From the IMG/VR virus record IMGVR_UViG_3300038701_001143, positions 1 to 38,909 of that record: 38,909 nt of DNA. The stretch is one strand, 5' to 3'. Source of the stretch: a virus. Position numbers and translations under genes: made by a program. The first letter of the stretch is position 1, and each line of letters starts with the position of its first letter. The notes beneath the pieces were generated by a model, which saw only the letters and a program-made list of their open reading frames with translations, was not told the origin of the DNA and searched no databases. Positions 18,973 to 38,909 of the stretch are shown here, piece after piece.

Positions 18973-20214
18973 TTATGATGCAGCTTGTTTTAAGTATTTC
19001 ATTGAATCATAATTAACGATTCCAGCACCAACACGCTTTCTCATGTGAAAGTAAACTTTCCCACTTGAAGCAGCAGTGTAAGGATCTTTAAGAATGCTCA
19101 TTCCAACGCGGTCAACAATCAAGTAAGAGCTTCGCAAGTCACCCAAACCGACAGAGATAGCATTTGCGGCACGATCAGCCATGTCTTCGAAAACAACAGT
19201 TCTTTGACCCAACAATTGATCTGCTTCACCTGCTTGAAAAGAAGGTTGCCAGATGTAGTTACCTTGTCCGTCTGTTAATTTACGAATGTAAGCTTCTGTG
19301 TCTCTGTTGTAGAAAAAGTAAGAGTTTCCTCTGTATCCATGTTTCAACAAAGCACGCAAGTCGACAAGCTCATCAGTAGTGATGGCAGTTGTAGAAGCAG
19401 CCAATTTAGCGCCAATTTGGTCACGAGTATAAACGTCACCGTTTGAAGTTTTAGCTGTGGCAGTTGCAAGACCTTCAGGTTGATTAGGACCAGAACCAGT
19501 TACAAAGCCAGTGGCTTCTAAACGAGCAAACTTATCAGCAACGTGCTCTTGTGCCCATGCTTCAAGGTTCCAATCAGAGTCTTCAAGAAGTCTTTCAGTG
19601 ATAGTAAAACGTGCATACATTTCACGGACTGGGATTCTTTTTTGACCAAGATCGGCTGTTGAAGTATCTGAACGAGTTTCGATTTCACCAATCCAACCTG
19701 CACCAACTTCATTGTCATCTAAAAAACCAACATACTCATCAGTCCCGATTGAAGCAGTACGAGCTAAAGAGCGAACTGGAGAAGTATCAAACAATCTTTT
19801 TTCGATAGCGCCCATGAATGGATTAACAGTGTAACCACCTTGAGGATCGATATTAGATTGAAGGGCTTTAACTTCTTTGTCGTTCAAGTCTAAGCTGCGA
19901 ACATCTTGTGGCATTCCTTTAGAGAGCCATTTTTTGAAAGCAGTGTTGAAAGATTTAGTGTCTTTTTGCTCTTCTTTGGCTTCGTGAGAATTAGCAAGAC
20001 GCGCAACAGCGGCTTGTGTTTCTTCTAAAGACTTTTTGACTTCAAGAGCTTCATTCAAAGCAGAGTCAACTTTGTCTTGTTTTTCTTTCAATTCAGCGAT
20101 TCCGCCTTCTTGTTTTTCTTGTTTTGCAAGAATTTCATCATTGGTTTTTTTAGAAGCTTCCCACGCTTCCCCGATCTTGTCGATCTGGCTTTTGATTTCG
20201 AGTTCTGCACTCAT
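18973..20214 (-). CDS. HK97-family major capsid protein
   Basis: Coiled-coil delta-like N-terminus, then QGGYTVNPF...SPVRSLARTASIGTDEY...RIPVREMYARFTITERLLEDS...ADKFARLEATGFVTGSGPNQPEGL. Confidence 0.9.
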   Translation of the reverse strand: MSAELEIKSQIDKIGEAWEASKKTNDEILAKQEKQEGGIAELKEKQDKVDSALNEALEVKKSLEETQAAVARLANSHEAKEEQKDTKSFNTAFKKWLSKGMPQDVRSLDLNDKEVKALQSNIDPQGGYTVNPFMGAIEKRLFDTSPVRSLARTASIGTDEYVGFLDDNEVGAGWIGEIETRSDTSTADLGQKRIPVREMYARFTITERLLEDSDWNLEAWAQEHVADKFARLEATGFVTGSGPNQPEGLATATAKTSNGDVYTRDQIGAKLAASTTAITTDELVDLRALLKHGYRGNSYFFYNRDTEAYIRKLTDGQGNYIWQPSFQAGEADQLLGQRTVVFEDMADRAANAISVGLGDLRSSYLIVDRVGMSILKDPYTAASSGKVYFHMRKRVGAGIVNYDSMKYLKQAAS

Positions 20215-20218
20215 AATA

Positions 20219-20938
20219 TTAACCTTTAACAGTAGAAAGTAATTTTGAAAGTGATGCCGATACGCCGTTCAAGTCTAAAGAATCATCTCGATCCTTGGCT
20301 TCAAATTGGTTCTTATCATCATCGACAAGTGCCTCATATCCACCGGCTATAAAAGCCTTTGCCTGTCTGCGTGAAAGTTTGGCATCTCGCAAAACCTTCT
20401 CTACGTCTCGTTTTGATAGGATACGCCCATCGTCGTCCGTCATTGATTTAACCCCAGTGACGAAAGCCTGAGTATTCATCGAATAGCCAACTACGCTAAC
20501 TTCAAAGAGTTCGATCTCTTTTAGTTCGCGCACCATGCCGCCGTTAAATTCCAATAAGTCTTGATCCTTTACATAATACCCAATAGACAAACCCTTTGGT
20601 CCTGTCCCTCTTAAAATGTTGTGAGCTTTTACAGCTTCCTCGATTCTTTTATCACCTTTAACCCATAATTGACCTTTGACATATAGGCCCTTTTCATCTT
20701 CTCGCATTTCCAACCAATCGCCGATAACATTGCCGTCTTGATGAAAGCCAAGCATTTGTGGAAGTTGACCTTTAGAAGACCATTCAGTTAAAGTGTTATT
20801 AAACGCGCCACCTTTAACAATGTCGCCGCCTAAGTCAATGTTTCCAAAGATAGAACCATAGCCTTCAAACAAACCCATTTCATTACTAGGGTCCTCATTT
20901 TTGACCTCAAATGGGATTATAGCGCGCTTTATTTCCAT
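20219..20938 (-). CDS. HK97-family prohead protease (S78/U35)
   Basis: FEGYGSIFGNIDLGGDIVKGGAF...QMLGFHQDGNVIG...GLSIGYYV...IELFEVSVVGYSMN. Confidence 0.85.
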   Translation of the reverse strand: MEIKRAIIPFEVKNEDPSNEMGLFEGYGSIFGNIDLGGDIVKGGAFNNTLTEWSSKGQLPQMLGFHQDGNVIGDWLEMREDEKGLYVKGQLWVKGDKRIEEAVKAHNILRGTGPKGLSIGYYVKDQDLLEFNGGMVRELKEIELFEVSVVGYSMNTQAFVTGVKSMTDDDGRILSKRDVEKVLRDAKLSRRQAKAFIAGGYEALVDDDKNQFEAKDRDDSLDLNGVSASLSKLLSTVKG

Positions 20939-20974: not shown

Positions 20975-22294
20975 TTATGCGTCAGCGTCACGGATAAGCT
21001 TTCCAGAGAACCTGCCTCGAACGCTAGTATTGTTTGCTGATGTACTAGCCTCAATCCAGAAGATAGACTTTTCACCCACCACAAAAGGTTCAGCAGGATT
21101 CAATTCTATGCGGTCACCATTTGAACCAGATAAATCGATGCTATCTCGATAAACCTCAAACCTAGCACCCACTACATCAGAATAAACCCAAGCTTTAAAA
21201 GTTACTTCTGGGGAGCCACCACCAGAAGACTTGATTACATTAAGCTTTAACCATGTCGCTAAAAACTGGTGATTTTGAGGAATGTAAAAAATACATTGTT
21301 GAGTTGTTCCCTGACCTGCCGGCATCTCTGCCATAGTGTTTCCGCTTGTGGTTGCCGTTACTGTAATCGTTCCAACGTTTGAGTCTGCCGAACCAGATGT
21401 AAAAATGGTCATACGATTAACGCCAATAAAACTATTTGATGTTGTGACTGTAGTAGTTCCATTCATGGCAATCACTTCGGTAACCTCATCCCAATTTGAA
21501 TCGACTCCAAAGATTACAGCTTGCCTTACACCTGTTCCGCTTGAGTTTGTATCGTTTACTGAATCTGAAACAATATCAAGAGTCTCGCCCGCTGCTAACT
21601 GTTGATTGAAAGCTGCACCAAATGACGCGATAACCTCGCTTGATGCTGTATCTATGTCTGAATTATAGCCAAATTTGTTCCAAGTTGTATCTCCCTGCCT
21701 TCTGCCCAATGCTACCTCTGTCGTGTAATCTGTTGGCCTTACACTGATAGCATCAAAGTCTTGGGCTAAAGTTGAATCAGTTGGGGCGTTTAAGTCTGAT
21801 TTATCCCCGACAGTCGTTTGCAATCTTAGGAAGGTCTGATCTGATCCAGAGTTGTTATAAAATATAACCCTAAAGTATTGTCTTGTGATTGTAAACCTGT
21901 GCGGCGCTTCTATTTGGCCCGTTCTATAATATCGAGTAAGTGTGCTATCAACATTTGAGCCATCTGGAGAGAATTGAATCTCAAAATATCCGTTTTGATC
22001 TGTTTTGACTGCAACAACGACAGAATCGTATTTTGTTACGTCTTCCCAAGTCCCTGTAAAATTATTACCATTTGTGATGAGCGTTGTGCTACTGTTGTCT
22101 GTTGAAATGTATGTTTGCGCATCTTTAAGCAAACCAGTATCGACTTTTATTGTGTCCAAGACTGTATCAATCTCGGTCAGTTTTGTTTCTACACCCTCAC
22201 GCCATGCAGGTACATCAAACTGACTGCCATCTGATTTGTGCTCAAGTCCTTCGTCTGGGTGTTGAAAGCCTCGATCTGTTGCCGGTCCACTCAT
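20975..22294 (-). CDS. Unknown 439-aa beta-rich protein inside the head-morphogenesis block
   Basis: Long clean ORF with no motif I recognise. Two jelly-roll-like Ser/Thr/Asn-rich halves, e.g. YFEIQFSPDGSNVDSTLTRYY...YFRVIFYNNSGSDQTFLRLQT. Confidence 0.55.
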   Translation of the reverse strand: MSGPATDRGFQHPDEGLEHKSDGSQFDVPAWREGVETKLTEIDTVLDTIKVDTGLLKDAQTYISTDNSSTTLITNGNNFTGTWEDVTKYDSVVVAVKTDQNGYFEIQFSPDGSNVDSTLTRYYRTGQIEAPHRFTITRQYFRVIFYNNSGSDQTFLRLQTTVGDKSDLNAPTDSTLAQDFDAISVRPTDYTTEVALGRRQGDTTWNKFGYNSDIDTASSEVIASFGAAFNQQLAAGETLDIVSDSVNDTNSSGTGVRQAVIFGVDSNWDEVTEVIAMNGTTTVTTSNSFIGVNRMTIFTSGSADSNVGTITVTATTSGNTMAEMPAGQGTTQQCIFYIPQNHQFLATWLKLNVIKSSGGGSPEVTFKAWVYSDVVGARFEVYRDSIDLSGSNGDRIELNPAEPFVVGEKSIFWIEASTSANNTSVRGRFSGKLIRDADA

Positions 22295-22295
22295 G

Positions 22296-23069
22296 TTAAT
22301 CCTTCAGGTAAATCGCTTTGCATCTACAGTTTACTCGCTGACCTGCACTCAATCCCCTATAGCGTGGATATGGTGCGCGCTCTGTTCTCTTACCTCTCAA
22401 GATAAAATTCTTATTAATGTCAACAGTTTGACCCTCCGCATGTTGGTGAGGATCTCTCACCTTGCTATCTCTAGCAGTCACCCACACTTTGCGCGTTGCT
22501 TTCTCTAAAGTCTTTCTGGATAGCTTGTCTCGACCCTCTGCCGTGACGCTGCCGATCTCCACTTCACTAATGACTTGAGCGCGACGGCTATTTGTGCCGA
22601 TCTTCTTTTTCAGTTTCTTTTCGATTTCTGCGTCGGTCAATTCATTCTTTCGCCCGCTTTCAATCACTCGGCTCATTTGTCTTTTAGTGCTGTCGCTGAT
22701 TTGTTTAGCTGCCCTCTCTGCTTGCTTTTTAAAGTTGCGTTCAAGTTCGCGCCTGACCTGTGCCACCTTCTTTTTGTCATCGGGGTAAAGGTCTTTTAAA
22801 AGCTTCTCACTCTTTTTGATGGTGTTGCTGTAAACCTTTTCAATGGTTTCTTGCAGTTTGAATTGACCGCCATCGATAACCATGTCAGCGTTTGGCTGTC
22901 CACCAATGCGAAGAGCTTGGATTGCATCTTTTCCGATAATGTTTAGTTCTCGTCTTATCTTCGGCATGGCTGAACGTTCAAGTCGTTTCTCAAGGGCATC
23001 GATTTGACTTATTTCCCTGAGTTGTCGCCTTCTACTCCTCGCCTGTTGTCTCTTCGCCATCGTCGTCAT
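22296..23069 (-). CDS. Minor head protein, SPP1 gp7 / Mu F-like
   Basis: C-terminal VWVTARDSKVRDPHQHAEGQTVDINKNF...PRYRGLSAGQRVNCRCKAIY matches the gp7/MuF signature. Follows the portal gene. Confidence 0.65.
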   Translation of the reverse strand: MTTMAKRQQARSRRRQLREISQIDALEKRLERSAMPKIRRELNIIGKDAIQALRIGGQPNADMVIDGGQFKLQETIEKVYSNTIKKSEKLLKDLYPDDKKKVAQVRRELERNFKKQAERAAKQISDSTKRQMSRVIESGRKNELTDAEIEKKLKKKIGTNSRRAQVISEVEIGSVTAEGRDKLSRKTLEKATRKVWVTARDSKVRDPHQHAEGQTVDINKNFILRGKRTERAPYPRYRGLSAGQRVNCRCKAIYLKD

Positions 23070-24309
23070 CCTCGTCTATCTCTTCCTCATCCATATCGCT
23101 GAATGTTTCATCCAGTGGTATGTCATTCGGCTGAACAAATACTTGATCGGCCTCTTCACTATCGATTGGCTCAAATCCAAGTATCGCGCGCTTTTCATTA
23201 ATCGTTAAAACATCAGAGCTAACTAATTCTGCTCTCTTCTCGCGCCTCAATGGCTCAAGTGCGGGTATGTCGTCTTCACAATAAACAATCTCTACATTTT
23301 CCCCAAAATCAGGAGTAAGCCATCTATTCAGCTCGGAAACGTAAAGGTCTAAAAGAGGCATGATGGTCTGAACAAAGAAAGCAACCTTAGCCTCTTCATA
23401 ATTCGCGTAAGTTTGTGACCCTTCAATACTGATTAACTGAGTAGGAACACCAAAGGCAGAGCATATCTCTTGGGCGTTTAACTTCAGCCCCTCTAACCAA
23501 TCCATGTCTTGAGGCGTCATTGAGATGGTGTCGATCTTTGACGCTGACCCCATGTATTTCACCTTTCTCGCATTTTCTGGACCTTCCCATTTTTCCTTAA
23601 TGTCCTGCAGGATAGTTTTTTCTTGGTCTCCTGTTGGTGGCGTGTCTGAAGTCACCACCAAAGAATAAGACCCAGAGTTTTGTAATGCGCTATAATTCCA
23701 CAATCTAGCAGCGTTCGAACTATCAACACAAGAGGCCGCCGCTTTCAATGGAGCTTGGCCAAATTCAGCACCAGTCGCAGAAGGGTTAAATGTTCGCCAT
23801 TGCATCAAATCGCTTTTGCCTGTGAACTGGTCTACTTCAAAAATGCGCTCGTATCTTTGGTTTTTTCCATAGATGTATCTCAATGGCACCATGTTGCCGA
23901 CAAGCCTATCAATCGAAAACTCGTATGGTTGCCAGTGAATCAACTCGCTAGGTAATCCTGAAGCTTTTAATTTCTGCTGAAAGTTGTTACCAGTTATCAT
24001 AAGCCAACTGCACGCAGCCTGTCTGTATTCAACTCCGCCCTCATCTGGGTTTGGTTGATCGATAAGCTTTTGCAATGGGTGTTCTGTTAAATGCTCCGGC
24101 TTGTCTCCCTTCGTCATAACCTTCAAAGGAACACGAGCAAAACTCTTTGAGATCAGGTCGATACATGCAAATACTGTTGGGTTTAGGCCATACCCTTCAT
24201 CTGCATACGCCTTTAAATTATCAGTTGGAAAAGCGTGTTTCTGTGTCAGAATTTGCGTACTTACCGAGGTCTTGACGCTTTTCGGGCGATTAAATGGCCA
24301 AATATTCAT
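23032..24309 (-). CDS. Portal protein (HK97-type, Phage_portal)
   Basis: LNPTVFACIDLISKSFARVPLKV...LIDQPNP...MITGNNF...RLWNYSALQNSG...DMDWLEGLKLNAQEICSAFGVPTQLI. Acidic C-terminus. Confidence 0.85.
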   Translation of the reverse strand: MNIWPFNRPKSVKTSVSTQILTQKHAFPTDNLKAYADEGYGLNPTVFACIDLISKSFARVPLKVMTKGDKPEHLTEHPLQKLIDQPNPDEGGVEYRQAACSWLMITGNNFQQKLKASGLPSELIHWQPYEFSIDRLVGNMVPLRYIYGKNQRYERIFEVDQFTGKSDLMQWRTFNPSATGAEFGQAPLKAAASCVDSSNAARLWNYSALQNSGSYSLVVTSDTPPTGDQEKTILQDIKEKWEGPENARKVKYMGSASKIDTISMTPQDMDWLEGLKLNAQEICSAFGVPTQLISIEGSQTYANYEEAKVAFFVQTIMPLLDLYVSELNRWLTPDFGENVEIVYCEDDIPALEPLRREKRAELVSSDVLTINEKRAILGFEPIDSEEADQVFVQPNDIPLDETFSDMDEEEIDEDDDDGEETTGEE

Positions 24310-24338
24310 TCATTTTTTTCTTGTGAACGTTCTATCTA

Positions 24339-24366
24339 ATTTTATGAACGTGCGATTATTTGGGAA
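24339..24366 (-). promoter_or_regulatory. Possible late promoter upstream of portal (-35 TTCCCA, 16 nt, -10 TAAAAT) flanked by ACGTTCA direct repeats
   Basis: Minus strand reads TTCCCAaataatcgcACGTTCATAAAATtagatagaACGTTCA. The repeats lie at 24324-24330 and 24345-24351, 21 bp apart. Confidence 0.3.
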
Positions 24367-24432
24367 GCTTGATACAAATTAGGACAACTTGTTCATAAGT
24401 TGAGTAAAAACGTATCACGCGAAAAATGGCCT

Positions 24433-24469
24433 ATAAAAAAAGATCCAATCACTAGCAGCAATTAGATCT
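24433..24469 (-). terminator. Intrinsic terminator (9-bp stem, 11-nt loop, T7 tract)
   Basis: Minus strand reads AGATCTAAT-tgctgctagtg-ATTGGATCT followed by TTTTTTTA. Confidence 0.55.
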
Positions 24470-24542
24470 CTTATTCTCAGTTTTGGTCGGCCGAGAATAA
24501 GATTTTAAGTTGAGTCTGGTTTTATCAAGTTATTTTAGCGCA

Positions 24543-24570
24543 TAAAAAAAAGGCCGGTTTTGCCCGACCT
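24543..24570 (-). terminator. Intrinsic terminator (7-bp GC-rich stem, T8 tract)
   Basis: Minus strand reads AGGTCGG-gcaaaa-CCGGCCT followed by TTTTTTTT, about 55 nt after the stop of the repeat-protein gene. Confidence 0.7.
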
Positions 24571-24624
24571 TAAACGCGCTGTTAGTATTTAGAGCCCCCA
24601 CGCGCAGGGCTTAACTATAAAATA

Positions 24625-24918
24625 TCAGCCATCGCCATCGCCATAGCCATCGCCATAGCCAGAACCATAGCCATCGCCATAGCCATCGCCATCGCCATAG
24701 CCAGAGCCATAGCCAGTGCCATAGCCATAGCCATAGCCATAGCCATAGCCAGAGCCAGAGCCATAGCCATCGCCATAGCCAGAGCCATAGCCAGAGCCAG
24801 AGCCAGAGCCATAGCCATCGCCATAGCCAGAGCCAGAGCCATAGCCAGAGCCAGAGCCATAGCCATTATCTTCTAAAGAATTTAACTCTGATGCATTCAA
24901 AACATATCGACTACTCAT
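24625..24918 (-). CDS. (X-Gly)40 Gly/Tyr/Ser/Asp repeat protein, 97 aa, unknown function
   Basis: The ATG at 24918 overlaps the upstream TAG (ATGAGTAG). Product is MSSRYVLNASELNSLED followed by 40 strict X-G dipeptides (18 Y, 12 S, 8 D, 1 N, 1 T). The track ORF extends to 24990. Confidence 0.55.
   Translation of the reverse strand: MSSRYVLNASELNSLEDNGYGSGSGYGSGSGYGDGYGSGSGSGYGSGYGDGYGSGSGYGYGYGYGYGTGYGSGYGDGDGYGDGYGSGYGDGYGDGDG
24628..24867. repeat. 240-bp hexanucleotide tandem repeat (GCCATA/GCCAGA/GCCATC units on the plus strand)
   Basis: 40 consecutive 6-nt units read directly. This keeps both the Gly-X frame and an Ala/Met/Leu frame open on the minus strand. Confidence 0.95.
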
Positions 24919-25285
24919 TATCCTGAGCCTCAACTGACCTAATAGACTTAGCTGCCTTTTTCGTACATACCAAAATTCCGCAAGCCTCAAGCATCACAGC
25001 ATCTTGACTCATTTCACAAGAAAACTTACAATCCTCTGCATTCCTTACGCCATATTCAGCCATGTCAGTCAAAACAAATCTAGAGTCATAGCGCCAAATC
25101 TGCCTAGCTTTTTTTAATGTCACAGTCTGTCCGCTAAATGAATGTAGGTAACCACTCATCACGCCTTGATTTCTACTTCTAACAATGACATATTTCAGCC
25201 CGTCTAGCTCATCAGGCTCACTACAAGCCGCGTCTTCTCGGATGTATTTCACATCGTCGATCATTAATGTTTCTGGTTTACTCAT
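24911..25285 (-). CDS. Hypothetical protein (terminase-adjacent family, possibly DUF6948-like)
   Basis: 124 aa. YVIVRSRNQGVMSGYLHSFSGQTVTLKKARQIWRYDS pattern that I recall next to terminases. Confidence 0.5.
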   Translation of the reverse strand: MSKPETLMIDDVKYIREDAACSEPDELDGLKYVIVRSRNQGVMSGYLHSFSGQTVTLKKARQIWRYDSRFVLTDMAEYGVRNAEDCKFSCEMSQDAVMLEACGILVCTKKAAKSIRSVEAQDNE

Positions 25286-25342
25286 TATTTCTCCTTGTTA
25301 AAACAGTATATTATTGTGCTCTTTTGGTGTGCAAGAATTAAT

Positions 25343-26626
25343 TTACGCGAAAAACAACGGCTTACCTTTCGGAAAAGCTAACTCAGTCAATCCATAAACT
25401 AAAGCGTCTAATCTATCGGGTGATTTCTGCTTGGGGTCACCTGTGAAATTGCACATTTGATATTCAAGGTCTTTAAAATTCCCAACATGATGCACCCGCC
25501 CATCTTCATACAATGAGCTAACCGGCTCGGCTCTCGTCATCTTTCCCTTTTTTGCCACAACACTATCAACCGGAGCATTTGGCAGAATCGTCTTGATTGT
25601 TAACTCCACAAGCTTATGACCCTGATTCACTTCAGCCACAATCTTATCGGCCTGATATTCATTGTAACAACCCACAATCGTCTTGGCCCATTCTAACGGG
25701 CTTAAATGGTCGCTTGCATCCTTGAGCACATAAAAGTGATTATCGAACCCTTCAGCCACAACCACAATTCCACACTCATCATTCTTTGCTTCACCTTCTG
25801 ACACTGACGGATCAACCGCAACGACGACGCGCCTTATCTCTGGCAATGAAAGCACTCGATAAGGTGATATCATTGTGTCCATTTTCCAAAGAGCGTTTTC
25901 GTTCTGGCTTGTCGGCAAACCCAGATAAATATGGTCGTATCTCGCGGGGTTTGCTGCTTTGACTCGCTCGGCCTTTTCTATGAATGAGGGGTGAAGGTTA
26001 TCAATGTTGTCTAGGTACGTTGTGTAGATGTAGAGCACATCGTCTTTTATTCCGTTAAAGGTTATATCAACGCCGGCATCTTGAAAGAATCGCTTATACA
26101 CGAAAGCGTCAATACTCGTAGGATTCCAAAGGAGAATATCGCGCAAATCCTTACCCTTTGTTCTGACTGAGTTTGATATTTTATCATAGGTTGATTCGTG
26201 CATCTCTGTGCCATCATCCGGCAACTCTTCACTTTCCTCTAACAAAAATGTGGTCAGACCATTGATTGATTTAAGACTTGCCGTTTGTATTCCGCTAGAT
26301 GTTTTAAGTCCAATAAAAAACATTTCTGATTGAGATTGTTTATTTAAATAAGTGTTATCAACAAGCTCAAAATCATCATACATCAACCAGTCACCAAATG
26401 GAGAGCTTGACATTTCCAACTTTTCAGAGAACTCTGGAATAATACTTTTTCTCGCGCTCGCCATCGTGTAGCGTGTGTTCGCTATTTTGTGCCCTGCTTG
26501 ATAACTTAAATCTCTCAGAAATGTTTGGGCTGCAAATGACTTACCAGAACCACGACCACCGGAAAGAATTGCAACTCTATATTCTTCACCCCATAAAGGC
26601 TTATATTTACTGCTTATCTTCATCAC
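25343..26626 (-). CDS. terL: Terminase large subunit (PBSX/Terminase_3 type)
   Basis: Walker A AILSGGRGSGKSF, Walker B-like FLLEESEE, and a C-terminal nuclease region VVVAVDPS...DECGIVVV...DRLDALVY. Confidence 0.9.
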   Translation of the reverse strand: MMKISSKYKPLWGEEYRVAILSGGRGSGKSFAAQTFLRDLSYQAGHKIANTRYTMASARKSIIPEFSEKLEMSSSPFGDWLMYDDFELVDNTYLNKQSQSEMFFIGLKTSSGIQTASLKSINGLTTFLLEESEELPDDGTEMHESTYDKISNSVRTKGKDLRDILLWNPTSIDAFVYKRFFQDAGVDITFNGIKDDVLYIYTTYLDNIDNLHPSFIEKAERVKAANPARYDHIYLGLPTSQNENALWKMDTMISPYRVLSLPEIRRVVVAVDPSVSEGEAKNDECGIVVVAEGFDNHFYVLKDASDHLSPLEWAKTIVGCYNEYQADKIVAEVNQGHKLVELTIKTILPNAPVDSVVAKKGKMTRAEPVSSLYEDGRVHHVGNFKDLEYQMCNFTGDPKQKSPDRLDALVYGLTELAFPKGKPLFFA

Positions 26627-26993
26627 TTATAAACTGATGAGGGGCGATAGATTTTATCTTGTCGCCTTTAGTGGTATGGTCAACTTCCTGCTTTTCACTG
26701 TACCCATGTTTCGCCAACATCAGCTTAGCAATCGACGCATTAAACTCGCCCATAATCCCGCCATTAACCAAAACCTTCTCCTGCATGGCACAAATTTGTG
26801 CTACGATGTCAGAAAAATCCTTTTTTGTATCGTCCTTAATCCAGTCATAAATCGTCTCTCTACTGATCCCCAAAAACACCGCAAGCCCCGCCACTTGGGG
26901 AAAAACGTCACCTTCAGACTCATAGTTGTGAAGGTAGTCATGAGCCTTTCGAATCAGCTCCTCGTTGTATTTTGTTGGTCGTCCTGTTCTCAT
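26607..26993 (-). CDS. terS: Terminase small subunit
   Basis: MRTGRPTKYNEELIRKA...VAGLAVFLGISRETIYDWIKDD...KLMLAKHGYSEKQ is a typical HTH TerS. Confidence 0.8.
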   Translation of the reverse strand: MRTGRPTKYNEELIRKAHDYLHNYESEGDVFPQVAGLAVFLGISRETIYDWIKDDTKKDFSDIVAQICAMQEKVLVNGGIMGEFNASIAKLMLAKHGYSEKQEVDHTTKGDKIKSIAPHQFISDEDKQ

Positions 26994-27358
26994 TCGTCTA
27001 TTCTATCACAATCTGTACTAAAACAATCATTTAATGAAAATGTACGAATCGGTTTTCTCTTAGATAGCGCATAAATCAACTCTTTTCTAACTCCGCTAGA
27101 CTCATCAACTCCATCAATATCAAGTATCCATAATTCGTCACACATATCAATCATGGCATAATCAATATTTTCCCATGTATCAAAACTCAATCCCATATCA
27201 TGCTTATTTGCGACTGGATGGGACTGAGCTATTGGCGATATGGGGCAGAACCCCATACCGATCAATTTTGAGCACCCGTCTAGGGCTAACTGGTACCTAG
27301 TTTCCATGACTGTCTTATCTGAATGGGTGTAAGGGCTAGCCATATATATAGTTTTCAT
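26990..27358 (-). CDS. DUF1937 / nucleoside 2-deoxyribosyltransferase-like fold protein
   Basis: IYMASPYTHSD...GFCPISPIAQSH...WENIDYAMIDMCDELWILDIDGVDESSGVRKELIYA pattern. TAATG and ATGA coupling to both neighbours. Confidence 0.5.
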   Translation of the reverse strand: MKTIYMASPYTHSDKTVMETRYQLALDGCSKLIGMGFCPISPIAQSHPVANKHDMGLSFDTWENIDYAMIDMCDELWILDIDGVDESSGVRKELIYALSKRKPIRTFSLNDCFSTDCDRIDE

Positions 27359-29733
27359 TACATAACTCCCATAATTTCAAATAAATCATCATGTTTGTCA
27401 TTTTGATTAATCTCAATAATATTTTTATTTTCAACTGGCTTTTTCTTCAATTTATTCGATTCAGTTTTATCATAAATTGGATCATCGCAAGGCCATAGCC
27501 TTTTCACATCACCGCTTGCTTCTTTTAGGTGCTCGTGAGCTGCATTGAAATAACTTGGCTTTAATTCACTTCCTTTAAATTTCCTACCCATTTCAAGAGA
27601 GACAACCCCCTCTGACCCAATGCCAGTAAATGGACTCAGTATAGTGTCATTCGGCAACGTCCACAATTCCAAGCATCTCTCTATCAAATCTAACTGAAGA
27701 GGGCAAATATGCCTTTCGTCTCTATCATCTCTTGCATGCTTAAAATTAAGAGTGTTTGACTGCCTTATGTTTTGCCATGTTGGTTGTGCTAAATTCTGCC
27801 ATCGGTCAACTGGGAATTGCTCTGGAGTATGAGACACAGGCTTTTTGTTAATTCCATCCTTTCTAAACGTCATTAGATAATCTGGTATACCTTGTCTATT
27901 CATAGCGCTATCCTTTTTTATCTGCTTCCATAATAGACCTAGAGCTTTGGTTCTTTGCATAGCCACTACTGGGCATTTCCATATAGTCACCTCTGACGCA
28001 TATATAAATCCATGTGACTGCATCATTTTGATTATTTCCCCCCTAAAGTCCCTAATGCCTATGAATCCATGCCTAGCTTTGGAAGTCGGCAAATTCATGC
28101 AATGAATTGATACTAGCCTACCTTCAGCCATTACTCTATAAAGCTCTTTTAGCATGAAGTCAAAATGTGTATAAAATTCGTTCTCAGATCTAGAATTTCC
28201 CATATCTCTATCATCATCAGAGTAAGTATATAGTGATGCGAAAGGTGGACTAAATATAGTGTAATCAATTGAGTTACTTTCTAAAGATGATACATAATCT
28301 ACACAATCACCATTATAAATTTCAAAATTATTATCTTTTTCAACTCTGCCGTTGCTTCTTGAGTCAATATTTAATTTTCTATCTTTCAATCCACCAGACT
28401 GAAAGCATCTCATGTGATCAATAATATTATCATACATAGACTTCATTTTATCATCTTTCACATTTATATTTTCAAGAACTGCTTCCTCAATATCGGCAGT
28501 GATAATATTTGCTGTGACTGATCTTTTTTGACCAAATCTATAACATCTTCTAACAGCTTGATAAAGCTGTTCATAAGAGTCATTTAAACCTACAAAAATC
28601 ATATTCGCGCATTGCTGCCAGTTCATGCCAAATCCCGCTATCTTTGGCTTAGTAATCAATATAGAATACTTACCAGAAGTAAATCCTAACAATCCATCCT
28701 TTTTGACACTATCCTTTTGTTGGCCAGATACCTCTACAACATCACTATATTTTTCACTTATGGCCTTGTGAATCATAGAACTCTCATCATTTAAATGACA
28801 CCAAATAAGTATGGGCTCATCTTCGCTATTAGATCTTATGTTATCAACTATATCTAGGCATCTATTAACTCTCTTTTCTATAGTATCTCGTCTAGCCCTA
28901 TTTCTACCAAGCAAACCCATTCCATTTTTTTCTAAATAGTCATTAATATCTAGTCCAGAATCAACTACATGATTTTTATAATTTAACTCTGGTAATTCAA
29001 AGTCGTTTTCAGGATGCCCAATATCCGATGGCCTTCTAAATATAACTGCCCAACTAGATACCCATGCCCAAAAATCCTCTTCACTATGTTTTTTAAGTCT
29101 CCATTTAGCACTCTCTTTGACATCATTTATAAAAAAAGTCGCCCACATTGACTCCTGAGACATGACCCCTAAAAATTCAGATTGACTTCCGAACTCCATA
29201 TAGTCATTTGGCGCAGGCGTAGCAGTCAAAGATAACCTATAATTAATATGGCTTATTTTTTCCATTACCATCATTCTGGTCTTGCTATCGCGGTGTTTAA
29301 GTATGCTCGATTCATCAAGAACTATCCCTGAAAACTCAGAAAAATCAATATTTTTTATCTGCTCATAATTCGTAACATAAACCCCATCTAAATTATCACA
29401 ATCTGAATCATAACGTTTAACATTAAGATTAAGCACTTCATTTGCTTCTCTCTGTGTTTGTTCAGCAATGCACAAAGGAGCCAATATAAGAACAGGCTTA
29501 CATGTCTCTATTCTTACGCGCTCTGCCCATTCGCATTGCATGATAGTCTTGCCCAATCCAGTATCTGCGAAAATCGCAGCTCTACCCTTTTTTAAAGCCC
29601 ATATAACAACATCTTTTTGATACCCAAATAATGATTCATGAACATTATCAACATTGAATCCAATGTCTTCCTGCACAACTCTCTTAGATTCTATAAAATC
29701 TCTGTATTCTGTGTTTAACATGTATCTCTCCAT
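27358..29733 (-). CDS. SNF2/SF2 helicase fused to a beta-class N4/N6 DNA methyltransferase
   Basis: Helicase motifs ADTGLGKT (aa 56-63), VLDESS (138-143), LTATPAPN, QAVRRCYRFGQ (392-402). MTase motifs SPPF (495-498), HICPLQ, LSPFTGIGSEG (699-709). The likely start is M5 at 29721 (GGAGAG 4 nt upstream). Confidence 0.8.
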   Translation of the reverse strand: MERYMLNTEYRDFIESKRVVQEDIGFNVDNVHESLFGYQKDVVIWALKKGRAAIFADTGLGKTIMQCEWAERVRIETCKPVLILAPLCIAEQTQREANEVLNLNVKRYDSDCDNLDGVYVTNYEQIKNIDFSEFSGIVLDESSILKHRDSKTRMMVMEKISHINYRLSLTATPAPNDYMEFGSQSEFLGVMSQESMWATFFINDVKESAKWRLKKHSEEDFWAWVSSWAVIFRRPSDIGHPENDFELPELNYKNHVVDSGLDINDYLEKNGMGLLGRNRARRDTIEKRVNRCLDIVDNIRSNSEDEPILIWCHLNDESSMIHKAISEKYSDVVEVSGQQKDSVKKDGLLGFTSGKYSILITKPKIAGFGMNWQQCANMIFVGLNDSYEQLYQAVRRCYRFGQKRSVTANIITADIEEAVLENINVKDDKMKSMYDNIIDHMRCFQSGGLKDRKLNIDSRSNGRVEKDNNFEIYNGDCVDYVSSLESNSIDYTIFSPPFASLYTYSDDDRDMGNSRSENEFYTHFDFMLKELYRVMAEGRLVSIHCMNLPTSKARHGFIGIRDFRGEIIKMMQSHGFIYASEVTIWKCPVVAMQRTKALGLLWKQIKKDSAMNRQGIPDYLMTFRKDGINKKPVSHTPEQFPVDRWQNLAQPTWQNIRQSNTLNFKHARDDRDERHICPLQLDLIERCLELWTLPNDTILSPFTGIGSEGVVSLEMGRKFKGSELKPSYFNAAHEHLKEASGDVKRLWPCDDPIYDKTESNKLKKKPVENKNIIEINQNDKHDDLFEIMGVM

Positions 29734-38198: not shown

Positions 38199-38909
38199 GA
38201 TTCTAGCTCCTTAAATGTTTGTGTTGGTGTGTTATCTTCATGTGAATCCATAGCGTCAATCAGGTCATCCCATGCGTCACGCTTTGGCCCTGTTGGTTTA
38301 CTCGTCTGGTGAACAATGTCAACCGGCTTTGTTTTCTGCCAAGATTTGAGGTTTCCGATTGTACAAGCCTTATAAAACTGCAAGACAAATTGTTTATCGT
38401 CTGCGGTCTTGATGTGTTGCTCGTAGTAAAACCTTTTAATATCATCCATTGAAAAACCTGCCCGTCTAGCTGAGACGTATCGGCCTTGTGCGGTGTCGTG
38501 GTTTTTGTTGTGGGGGAATCCTGCAAGGTAATTCCAGAAGGTATCAAATTCAGCGTTTAGCTTTTTTGTTTCAGCAGCTTTTGCTGCGGCCTCCTCTCTC
38601 GACTTTGAATCGTCGTCAATTTCTTTTATACTTTTCTTTTCTTTATCTATATCTTTCTCTTTCTCTTTATCTAGGGAAACTTTCTTGTTAGTAACTTGCA
38701 AGTTATTTGTATGGTTATCCCTGAATTTCAGTAAGTTAGGTATTTCAATTCGACAGTTTTTTTCAGAAATATCGGCATGAAACAGCGAAAGTTTGACCAT
38801 AACTTGAGCAAACTTTGAGAATTTCTTTGGAGAAAGTTGGGCAAAACTTCCCCATTTCTTGAGAGAAAATTCAGCGAAACAGTCATTACTCGGCCCCATT
38901 TCATGGCCT
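38195..38909 (-). CDS. Replication organizer/initiator-like protein, C-terminal segment (continues from 240..128 across the junction)
   Basis: The frame is open to the window end. The track start at 38899 is an internal Met. KE-rich linker, then FDTFWNYLAGFPHNK...RAGFSMDDIKRFYYEQ. Confidence 0.6.
   Translation of the reverse strand, partial: GHEMGPSNDCFAEFSLKKWGSFAQLSPKKFSKFAQVMVKLSLFHADISEKNCRIEIPNLLKFRDNHTNNLQVTNKKVSLDKEKEKDIDKEKKSIKEIDDDSKSREEAAAKAAETKKLNAEFDTFWNYLAGFPHNKNHDTAQGRYVSARRAGFSMDDIKRFYYEQHIKTADDKQFVLQFYKACTIGNLKSWQKTKPVDIVHQTSKPTGPKRDAWDDLIDAMDSHEDNTPTQTFKELES
38783..38909. repeat. Terminal direct repeat, exact copy of 1..127
   Basis: Read directly; see the first feature. Confidence 0.95.

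Follow-up and report, generated by a model that had tools for sequence, protein, structure and literature searches.

Within the virus record IMGVR_UViG_3300038701_001143 of IMG/VR, analysed here over its positions 1 to 38,909 (a stretch of 38,909 nucleotides (nt), termed here the window), a minus-strand gene between the terL and portal genes consists largely of hexanucleotide units and specifies a protein in which glycine occupies every second position of a long repeat. This repeat is a genuine protein-coding phage gene read in the Gly-X frame (where X is mostly Ser, Tyr or Asp), as is indicated by comparison of homologous sequences. It is almost certainly the second gene of a mobile two-gene cassette: a gene for a predicted small barrel protein of about 120 residues, from family DUF6948, followed by an overlapping gene that has its own Shine-Dalgarno (SD) sequence and ATG and that encodes a leader joined to a (Gly-X)n chain. 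The pair is widely conserved among phages, and its Gly-X member is, apparently, undescribed.

Tandem Repeats Finder detects a single array, at 24627-24866 (period 6, 40.0 copies, score 319). The open reading frame (ORF) containing it runs on the minus strand from an ATG at 24918-24916 to a TGA at 24627-24625 (the gene thus spans 24625..24918) and encodes 97 amino acids: a leader of 17 codons, MSSRYVLNASELNSLED (24868..24918), followed by 40 X-Gly units, (X-Gly)40, at 24628..24867. Comparison with five loci of a close clade (L004, L005, L086, L088 and L096) shows that the leader there keeps to h-x-x-L-N-x-x-[ED]-[FLW]-x-x-[LI]-x-D-N-G. Glycine is present in all 40 units; X is Tyr in 18, Ser in 12, Asp in 8, Asn in one and Thr in one; and the repeat contains no basic or aliphatic residue. 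At the DNA level the units are TATGGC (17 copies), TCTGGC (12), GATGGC (8) and one copy each of AATGGC, ACTGGC and TATGGT. An original prediction, made from the sequence of the window alone, had described 40 uninterrupted 6-nt units, a 97-residue frame and this composition of X, and each of these countable details proved to be exact. Among the Gly codons of the repeat 39 of 40 are GGC and one is GGT, as compared with 21% GGC among the Gly codons of nine other genes of the same phage--an excess that fits recent expansion by unit duplication.

The ATG of the Gly-X gene lies inside ATGAGTAG and overlaps by 8 nt the end of the DUF6948 gene, whose stop codon is the TAG at 24913-24911; a GAGG SD sequence, also within the 3' end of the DUF6948 gene, occupies 24928..24931 on the minus strand, 9 nt before the ATG. 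This overlap is compatible with the translational coupling to the upstream gene that had been proposed earlier, but the gene in question encodes DUF6948 and is not a terminase gene. Across the repeat all three coding-strand frames are open by construction, and a second ORF with an ATG, 83 residues long and reading (Ala-Met/Ala-Leu)n, covers it at 24615-24866. Hence the window by itself cannot decide which frame is used, and it is comparative data that decide.

When IMG/VR was first scanned with the DUF6948 protein, three loci were recovered (33-43% identity), all of them with a period-6 repeat directly downstream. A scan driven by a DUF6948 alignment gave at least 178 relatives; the best 80 of these, at 29-60% identity, underlie the family counts given here (77-80 loci, depending on the feature). 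At 78 of the 80 loci five or more uninterrupted Gly-X units stand right after the DUF6948 gene on the same strand, and the two exceptions are an in-frame DUF6948-GX fusion (L023) and a degenerate Gly-rich ORF (L065). The Gly-X frame is free of stops at 79 of 79 loci, whereas stops close the other two sense frames at 10 and 31 loci, leaving them open at 69 and 48. This is so despite divergence at the level of codons: the dominant Gly codon is GGC at 57 loci, GGT at 10, GGA at 8 and GGG at 4, TAT and TAC occur at about 1:1, and the alternative frames read AM, AT, AL, AP, TV and so on, depending on the phage, while Gly-[Ser/Tyr/Asp] stays constant. Because the codons differ and the Gly-X pattern does not, what is conserved is the amino-acid pattern rather than the DNA. 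The view that the Gly-X frame is the coding one is borne out, no locus among the 79 keeping the repeat with that frame closed. Signals for initiation accompany the frame: an in-frame ATG lies within 30 codons of the repeat at 76 of 77 loci; an SD-like motif precedes the start at 57 of 77 (74%, against 18% at random positions); and the start overlaps the 3' end of the DUF6948 gene at 73 of 77, most often by 13 nt. A stop codon usually follows directly upon the last unit. As a separate observation, family-wide (79 loci) 89% of Ser codons are TCY and nearly all codons are NNY, where the genome background used for comparison is that of this window only; candidate causes are tRNA choice, avoidance of G-runs or of stops in the alternative frames, and shared descent with homogenisation.

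It is extremely improbable that the repeat is not a gene at all, or not this one--that is, that it is a non-coding repeat, an assembly artefact, or a gene read in the Ala-Met/Ala-Leu frame. The open sense frames of the window and its (AM/AL)n ORF leave room for this reading, and the Ala-Met frame is GenBank's call in Chlorobiaceae phage CV-1-33 (MT192033; gene_25, QOE32032, beginning MAMAMAMALAM..., at L219 2837-3082). It is contradicted, however, by codon divergence under a constant Gly-X pattern, by the stops in the other frames, by the conserved SD and the conserved overlap of the ATG with DUF6948, and, as regards an artefact, by the presence of the array in at least five independently sequenced cultured phages. 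In CV-1-33 itself a GAGGTGG followed by an ATG overlaps the DUF6948 stop, and the Gly-X frame that starts there, MDGINYGYGDGDGSG..., is very likely the true product, as judged from the sequence. Two further candidates were rejected: a programmed frameshift joining the DUF6948 and Gly-X ORFs, since the overlap contains no slippery heptamer and the SD and ATG are conserved; and Pfam 'TrAA12-like' matches to the repeat, which fall below the cutoff and were taken as low-complexity noise.

The association with DUF6948 was also examined in reverse, starting from the repeat. A degenerate DNA pattern, (GGNKMY)12, which encodes twelve units of G-[Y/S/D/A], matched at least 120 IMG/VR stretches, of which 79 were analysed and 58 had enough upstream flank. 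Upstream of the run, 36 of the 58 loci have a DUF6948 ORF ending just before it, one has a DUF6948-GX fusion and five have a divergent DUF6948-like gene (..INGVEYAP..RAVVVVDRGWIFAGDV..); 14 are simple runs of a single type, (GA)n, (GS)n or (GD)n, and lie outside the Gly-X family, and two are other cases of the Y/S/D type. The partner is therefore present at about 42 of 44 genuine Y/S/D-type arrays, and DUF6948 is a near-obligate companion of the Gly-X gene, the two reading frames overlapping. No third conserved neighbour was found among 131 flanking ORFs of relatives; those that are recognisable include AAA_24, SSB, RecT, ERF, YqaJ, RusA, DnaB, Gp157, several methylases, thymidylate synthase and one Acb2/Tad1.

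In these relatives the usual site of the pair is an early recombination, replication or accessory region, far from the packaging genes. A relative whose DUF6948 protein is 87% identical to that of the window, and which has a Gly-X gene of 12 units as against 40, adjoins small ORFs and an SNF2 helicase rather than the portal gene, and a 78%-identical relative occupies the same terL-portal position as in the window; such differing neighbourhoods of close homologues indicate that the cassette is mobile. Consequently, the original prediction's description of the gene as the end of the terminase operon does not hold, the pair being a separate cassette that in relatives lies mostly among early recombination and replication genes, and its suggestion of a capsid or portal glue with abundant late expression is weakened by that same position away from the packaging genes. 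Multiplication in tandem was observed as well: L149 (1720-2929) has five consecutive Gly-X genes after a PcfJ-like gene, L040 (3718-5156) has the order GX-DUF6948-GX-DUF6948-GX, and L021 (2188-2853) and L030 (150-1116) each have two GX genes per DUF6948 gene.

The partner in the window (24911-25285, minus strand, 124 residues) matches Pfam family PF22253 (DUF6948) with an expectation value (E) of 8e-23 and 80.8 bits, against a cutoff of 27. The family, which is matched by all 37 aligned homologues, is large: at E ≤ 1e-3 it comprises 2617 cluster representatives (50% identity), and at E ≤ 1e-10 it comprises 1394. An AlphaFold model based on the 37-sequence alignment, with a predicted local distance difference test (pLDDT) score of 92.8, consists of an N-terminal hairpin, three long bent strands, a helix, two short strands and a second helix. 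When this model is compared with the PDB using Foldseek, the top 50 or so matches are almost all Sm/LSm proteins (such as 4m75_D, 1i81_F and 1i8f), at E values of 0.05-0.3 and none at E ≤ 1e-3, with template-modelling (TM) scores on the target of 0.6-0.67 and root-mean-square deviations of 2.1-2.8 Å over about 78 columns; within BFVD it matches other DUF6948 proteins. On the strength of this model DUF6948 would be a small β-barrel that is Sm-like by predicted fold, with membership of the Sm family itself unproven. A sequence search of the PDB with the DUF6948 profile gave nothing meaningful; PADLOC contains no match for either cassette protein at E up to 1; NCBIfam gives nothing for them and PHROGs only a family of 'unknown function' (phrog_18306); and the DUF6948 protein of the window, used as a protein-pattern query against bacterial genomes, gave nothing. 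Among the variants of the partner, P0099 (216 residues) has two tandem DUF6948 domains. In P0076 (164 residues) the DUF6948 ORF reads through into the repeat as Gly-Met/Gly-Leu, which is probably a gene-calling artefact; the read-through looks Gly-rich because GGG codons shift the apparent Gly-rich frame.

The Gly-X chains themselves are polyanionic and aromatic, and they vary in length. Family-wide, X is Ser in 34% of units, Tyr in 28.5%, Asp in 24.5%, Asn in 3%, Thr and Phe in about 1.5% each and Cys in 1.2%; Lys and Arg together, like Ala, make up less than 1%, and aliphatic residues are rare. The proteins have a median length of 80 residues, a median net charge of -9 and a median isoelectric point (pI) of 4.05 (the net charge of the window's protein being about -10, or about -0.1 per residue), and their leaders have a median length of 8 residues, typically 6-13. 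Tyr occurs at 77 of 79 loci, at a median of 29% of X, and every Tyr of the window's protein is flanked by Gly (18 GYG triplets in 80 repeat residues). Asn replaces Ser in a few loci, and Phe and Trp outnumber Tyr in about five, a substitution which suggests that aromaticity may matter more than the hydroxyl group. Since aromatic residues are strongly under-represented in the low-complexity regions of prokaryotes and phages (survey, PMC6821194), a Tyr-rich array of this kind is atypical.

Variation in length is seen most directly in a set of eight contigs, assembled by two pipelines from several samples, that encode an identical 124-residue DUF6948 protein (P0003). The six complete Gly-X ORFs of this group encode 44, 56, 56, 76, 82 and 82 residues; they share a leader and all end in GDGYGYGDGCG, the differences being internal deletions of whole units between short internal repeats. 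These are short-read assemblies, to be read with corresponding caution, but the variants recur across independent assemblies and the frame is always kept. The expectation that length would vary by 6-nt units has thus been confirmed, with near-identical phages differing by whole units, in frame. As far as sequence can tell, the Gly-X gene has the properties of a hypervariable coding tandem repeat, that is, of a contingency-type locus.

The repeat is also a portable module. A search with the window's Gly-X protein returned 217 proteins, the best 120 of which were examined. In-frame DUF6948-(GX)n fusions occur in L023, L123, P0152 and P0319, and in P0211, as read from its sequence, GX comes first and a DUF6948-like domain second; by a Rosetta-stone argument, fusion in both orders suggests that the two products act as one unit. 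Among the best 120 of the 217, Gly-X tails are also found on DUF7666 (PF24703; a cluster of 13 by similarity, with Pfam confirmation for P0204, P0207 and P0255) and on a head of about 65 residues in which a Gly-Ala-Cys motif is conserved (clusters of 29 and 28). The DUF7666 proteins with a C-terminal Gly-[Y/D/N/S] tail (P0204, P0207, P0237 and P0255; L340 4001-4477 and L341 4001-4477) are encoded between YqaJ and RecT, or near Lar, Sak and DnaB, in early regions of temperate phages; one protein, P0223, has the apparent reverse order, GX followed by a DUF7666-like domain. Head-bearing Gly-X genes lie directly behind a short DUF6948 gene in four of the four contexts retrieved. It was observed that short DUF6948 proteins (75-103 residues, presumably without the N-terminal hairpin; L343 1372-1599, L344 2247-2516, L345 2244-2525 and L342 3693-4004) pair with Gly-Ala-Cys-head Gly-X proteins and long ones with short-leader Gly-X proteins; a structural element may have been traded between the two genes. 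In a further subfamily, also located behind DUF6948, leader and (GX)n are followed by a conserved C-terminal domain of about 160 residues with the motif WH[HN]xLTGSCExGR (L069 5207-5983; L242 3410-4144; L330 3201-3926, minus strand; L296 254-1414, minus strand), which has no match in Pfam, PHROGs, NCBIfam or the PDB. Near-obligate pairing with one small fold, together with fusion to others, argues for a specific and selectable function.

What that function may be can be approached by analogy. A mechanism that is possible, though more doubtful than probable, is that the chain is a disordered polyanionic aromatic tail which acts with DUF6948 in interference with the host rather than in virion structure. 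The Gly-X chain would be an intrinsically disordered, aromatic-studded tail, mostly a separate chain and sometimes fused in cis to DUF6948, and the globular partner would supply specificity or oligomerisation. With its carboxylates and tyrosine rings the tail would form a flexible multivalent surface resembling the backbone of a single-stranded nucleic acid, which, during infection, could engage or sequester host proteins that bind nucleic acids or are otherwise basic, and could in this way serve host takeover, anti-defence or the control of recombination. Slippage by whole units would let repeat number drift, changing the length of the tail and never its reading frame. Host takeover or anti-defence is the likely arena. 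Taken as a whole, the identification of the cassette together with an acidic-aromatic tail that has a barrel partner is the best explanation at hand, although it is somewhat likelier to be wrong than right.

Two kinds of known protein tail resemble this arrangement. Sm-fold proteins likewise combine a small barrel with flexible, low-complexity tails that can be Gly-rich--the acidic C-terminal domain of Escherichia coli Hfq, the GGFGGQ-type tail of Acinetobacter Hfq, and the RG/RGG tails of SmD1, SmD3 and LSm4--and the acidic tail of an Sm protein is thought to mimic nucleic acid and so to tune binding by the core; the natural DUF6948-(GX)n fusions in cis resemble these. The Gly-X chain differs in that it is normally encoded by a separate overlapping gene, is a strict dipeptide repeat, is far longer (10-50 units), is Tyr-rich and is hypervariable. 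Single-stranded-DNA-binding proteins have acidic, aromatic-tipped tails (E. coli SSB, ending DDDIPF; T7 gp2.5; T4 gp32), which are similar in being disordered segments that are both acidic and aromatic; the Gly-X genes share with them a recombination and replication context, and one DUF6948 fusion, P0203, ends ...SEDDDGF. Those tails, however, are short, non-repetitive and attached to oligonucleotide/oligosaccharide-binding (OB) folds.

Several points weigh against an acidic tail acting with an Sm-like barrel. Alignment of the DUF6948 profile with four archaeal Sm proteins using hhalign gave a probability of 0.3 and an E value of 0.22, the local match covering an Sm1-like stretch only, KYVIVRSRNQGVMSGYLHSF, and Pfam LSM does not match DUF6948 at E up to 10. 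DUF6948 proteins are about neutral (median pI 6.3), where a basic surface would be expected for clasping a polyanion. The occurrence of Gly-X tails on unrelated heads (DUF7666, the Gly-Ala-Cys head and the C-terminal domain) implies that a tail specific to DUF6948 is an incomplete model. The window's own copy of the cassette is placed within the late packaging genes, so that early expression there is no more than putative. The pLDDT of 40, with no secondary structure, that AlphaFold assigns to the window's Gly-X protein alone is compatible with disorder and equally with a fold or fibril beyond the reach of AlphaFold. Finally, the idea of a nucleic-acid mimic is an argument from composition and from analogy with known protein tails, and the case for the mechanism is computational.

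Some of the same features would suit a scaffold for a condensate or gel, in which a chain of the [G/S]Y[G/S] type, carrying 10-50 aromatic stickers, and oligomeric DUF6948 would together form a multivalent network in the infected cell--either a phase-separated compartment or a coacervate with basic partners, after the manner of FUS-type domains or of P-bodies driven by LSm4 and Edc3. Like the FUS, EWS and TAF15 domains, the chain is Gly/Ser/Tyr-rich, with its Tyr residues between Gly or Ser (always Gly in the window), is predicted to be disordered, and stands beside a putative RNA-binding-type fold, inasmuch as the best fold matches of DUF6948 are to Sm/LSm proteins; its portability between heads and its multiplication in tandem (the five GX genes of L149 and the alternating array of L040) are in keeping with such a role. 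FUS-type domains are nearly uncharged, however, so that of their characteristics the Gly-X chain has the many [G/S]Y[G/S] triplets in a disordered segment and lacks the near-neutral charge: about 25% Asp and about -0.1 charges per residue should oppose homotypic condensation, no Arg-rich partner is encoded, and DUF6948 is neutral. It differs also in its strict period of 2, in mostly lacking Gln/Asn-rich stretches, and in belonging to a bacterial virus. A condensate, judged in this way from sequence, is rather unlikely. A lower probability still attaches to a tyrosine-cluster decoy, in which the chain would mimic the C-terminal Y-cluster of bacterial tyrosine kinases (BY-kinases, of the Wzc/CapB type), competing as a substrate or inhibitor for the kinase or phosphatase and so perturbing export of capsule or exopolysaccharide, or would itself be poly-phosphorylated. 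The Y-cluster concept is documented in PMC9245664, PMC11206214 and PMC2422856. A Tyr-anchored Gly-X scan of bacterial genomes yielded, among the matches listed, mostly proteins of about 800 residues from Bacteroidota that end in (YG)8-20, one of which is a polysaccharide-biosynthesis tyrosine autokinase (NCBIfam TIGR01007, 138 bits against a cutoff of 108), and 8 of the 109 matches listed are DUF6948 + GX cassettes, presumably in prophages. The resemblance is that of a (Tyr-Gly)n run interspersed with Ser, Asp or Asn, and Tyr is indeed present in 77 of 79 family members; but Ser and Asp are as abundant, the Phe or Trp of about five loci cannot be phosphorylated, and the obligate DUF6948 partner and the recombination-module context are left unexplained. 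Moreover, the Gly-X protein is a stand-alone chain (97 residues in the window) without a kinase domain, has a much longer run, is linked to DUF6948 and is phage-encoded, whereas (YG)n-tailed BY-kinases were seen in bacterial chromosomes only; the hosts identified for cultured phages are mostly Proteobacteria, and a literature search gave no such phage decoy. As an observation in its own right, the Y-clusters of BY-kinases in Bacteroidota and some others are literal (Tyr-Gly)8-20 runs (L226 5154-7532, minus strand, and about 90 loci among L220-L339), whose number of units differs between species, suggesting slippage-tuned phospho-acceptor tails.

The remaining readings are each less probable than these. 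That the cassette is a toxin-antitoxin-like or exclusion moron, with DUF6948 as toxic effector and the labile, disordered, acidic Gly-X protein as the neutraliser encoded in overlap, is very improbable: the overlapping two-gene layout, the promoter-like site and terminators described below, the mobility and the disordered acidic partner are what such a system might have, but neither PADLOC nor NCBIfam has a match, the two parts form stable in-frame fusions, GX arrays occur in multiple copies, and antitoxins are not known to recognise their toxins by a low-complexity sequence of hypervariable length. A silk-like or amyloid-like β-sheet polymer, abundant late in infection and serving as capsid or portal glue, as an ejected polymer or as a dityrosine-cross-linked fibre, is slightly more improbable again. 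It would account for the strict Gly-X alternation (silk fibroin, as GAGAGS/GAGAGY, also places Gly at alternate positions and contains some Tyr and Ser) and for the location of the window's gene between terL and portal with strong terminators behind it, and the homologue in Ralstonia phage NK-7 is named 'fibroin heavy chain-like protein', a name driven by composition only. Yet X in the family is not dominated by Ala and Ser, as in fibroin, and 28% Tyr, 24% Asp and a net charge of about -10 disfavour the stacking of sheets; there is no secretion signal; AlphaFold predicts no strands, although this does not exclude fibrils; the domains to which Gly-X is fused are small and of cytoplasmic type; and the pair lies mostly among early recombination and replication genes in the relatives examined. 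The silk-type β-stack of the original prediction is therefore not upheld, and neither is its comparison with microcins and double-glycine leaders. A secreted Gly-rich peptide--a class II microcin, or the precursor of a ribosomally synthesised and post-translationally modified peptide (RiPP)--with a leader of the double-glycine type is scarcely credible: the close-clade leader, L-N-x-x-E-L-x-x-L-x-D-N-G, resembles LSxxELxxIxGG, and Cys occurs at X in some members (L074 and the P0003 group), but that leader ends in D-N-G without a GG or GA site, the family's median of 8 residues falls short of the 15-30 expected, globular domains are fused on either side of Gly-X, and no gene for a C39 peptidase/ABC exporter, an immunity protein, a cyclodehydratase or a radical-SAM enzyme was found among the scanned ORFs of the window or the 131 flanking ORFs. 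In sum, the Gly-X protein falls outside the silks, the microcins, the BY-kinases and the PADLOC defence systems, and its affinities with Sm-protein tails and FUS-type domains are analogies; whatever probability the named readings leave over belongs to something not yet imagined.

Around the cassette the genes of the window, identified by Pfam and all on the minus strand, are as follows: an SNF2-helicase/N6_N4-methylase fusion (27358-29733), DUF1937 (26990-27358), TerS of the gp3 type (26607-26993) and TerL (25343-26626) upstream, and the portal (23032-24309), a MuF-like protein (22296-23069), the prohead protease (20219-20938) and an HK97-type capsid protein (18973-20214) downstream. The 57-nt gap between terL and the DUF6948 gene contains a match to a sigma-70-like promoter (TGCACA-17 nt-TATACT, 25305..25333, minus strand; a pattern match only, from a consensus scan), and an AGGAG SD sequence (25291..25295, minus strand) lies 5 nt 5' of the DUF6948 ATG. 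Between the Gly-X and portal genes is an intergenic region of 315 nt (24310-24624). The RNA 3' of the Gly-X stop is predicted to form four hairpins, two of which are followed by a run of U7-U8 (fold z = -4.9 against shuffles, 24420-24630). Intrinsic terminator 1, AAGGUCGGGCAAAACCGGCCUU followed by U8 (24542..24571, minus strand), was found by both the terminator scan and RNA folding; intrinsic terminator 2, a 13-bp hairpin AGAUCUAAUUGCU...GGAUCU followed by U7 (about 24434..24469, minus strand), failed the G-C criterion of the simple scan and was seen by RNA folding. The tandem terminators noted earlier behind the gene are thus present as two elements of hairpin plus U-run, and the first hairpin and terminator 1 are conserved behind the Gly-X gene in the P0003 group. 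An Rfam scan of the whole window, including 24310-24624, gave no match.

In this setting the DUF6948 and Gly-X pair looks like a moron-like autonomous insertion of promoter, genes and terminators into the packaging and head module. It shares with phage morons a promoter-like site, its own SD sequence, two terminators, the terL-portal position and a variable location in relatives, a likeness that covers genomic behaviour only and says nothing of function. Close relatives that lack the cassette were not found by a TerL-based search of IMG/VR, GenBank phages matching only at ≤47% identity, nor did megablast of 23000-27000 against 50,697 phage records give any match. Some other features of the window were observed in passing. 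The ORF at 27358-29733 (minus strand) joins, in a single chain of 791 residues, an SNF2/ResIII helicase to an N6/N4 DNA methylase, which are separate genes in the relative L086. The DUF1937 gene (26990-27358, minus strand), which belongs to a PHROG annotated as nucleoside 2-deoxyribosyltransferase-like, overlaps the start of TerS. Between the MuF-like and prohead protease genes lies an ORF of 439 residues (20975-22294, minus strand) that has no Pfam family and falls into PHROG 8198 (unknown function); its presence at that point of an HK97-type head module is unusual. Near the end of the window there is another short tandem repeat (38625-38673; TTTATC-type, periods 6 and 24, about 8 copies).

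The Gly-X gene occurs in cultured phages as well, where its annotation varies. In Iodobacter phage PhiPLPE (NC_011142, a myovirus) it falls unannotated in the gap between gp84 and gp83 (L084 1173-1409), as a 78-residue ORF, MSRLVNNKN(GX)n, directly after the DUF6948 gene gp84 and followed by a terminator. In Pectobacterium phage Ymer it is a 'hypothetical protein' (a DUF6948 homologue occurs in seven further Pectobacterium/Dickeya phages, the Gly-X gene having been looked at in Ymer only), and the record of Vibrio phage IKEMa6-1 is unannotated. In reference genomes, then, the gene has been left out, called in the wrong frame (as in CV-1-33) or named 'fibroin-like' from its composition. Literature searches by family names, accessions, motifs and topics gave nothing on DUF6948, DUF7666 or phage Gly-X proteins of this kind.

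This gene family, though carried by a great many phage genomes, has thus passed essentially unnoticed, to judge from the 2617 DUF6948 clusters and from two Gly-X pattern scans with at least 120 matches each. Its strict two-residue period, Tyr-richness, polyanionic character and hypervariable length are unusual for low-complexity sequence in prokaryotes and viruses, and cultured phages of tractable hosts (Pectobacterium, Ralstonia, Vibrio and Iodobacter) make the proposals directly testable. A speculative and, on present evidence, unlikely generalisation is that (Gly-[Tyr/Ser/Asp])n is a portable, length-tunable, polyanionic aromatic polymer which, together with an Sm-like barrel or with other heads, mimics single-stranded nucleic acid or nucleates a condensate. 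If true, phages would for the first time be seen to have an equivalent of the eukaryotic combination of an Sm or RNA-binding domain with a [G/S]Y[G/S] low-complexity segment. Whether as a nucleic-acid mimic or as a condensate scaffold, it would represent a new molecular principle in phage-host conflict and would offer biotechnology a compact, tunable polymer.

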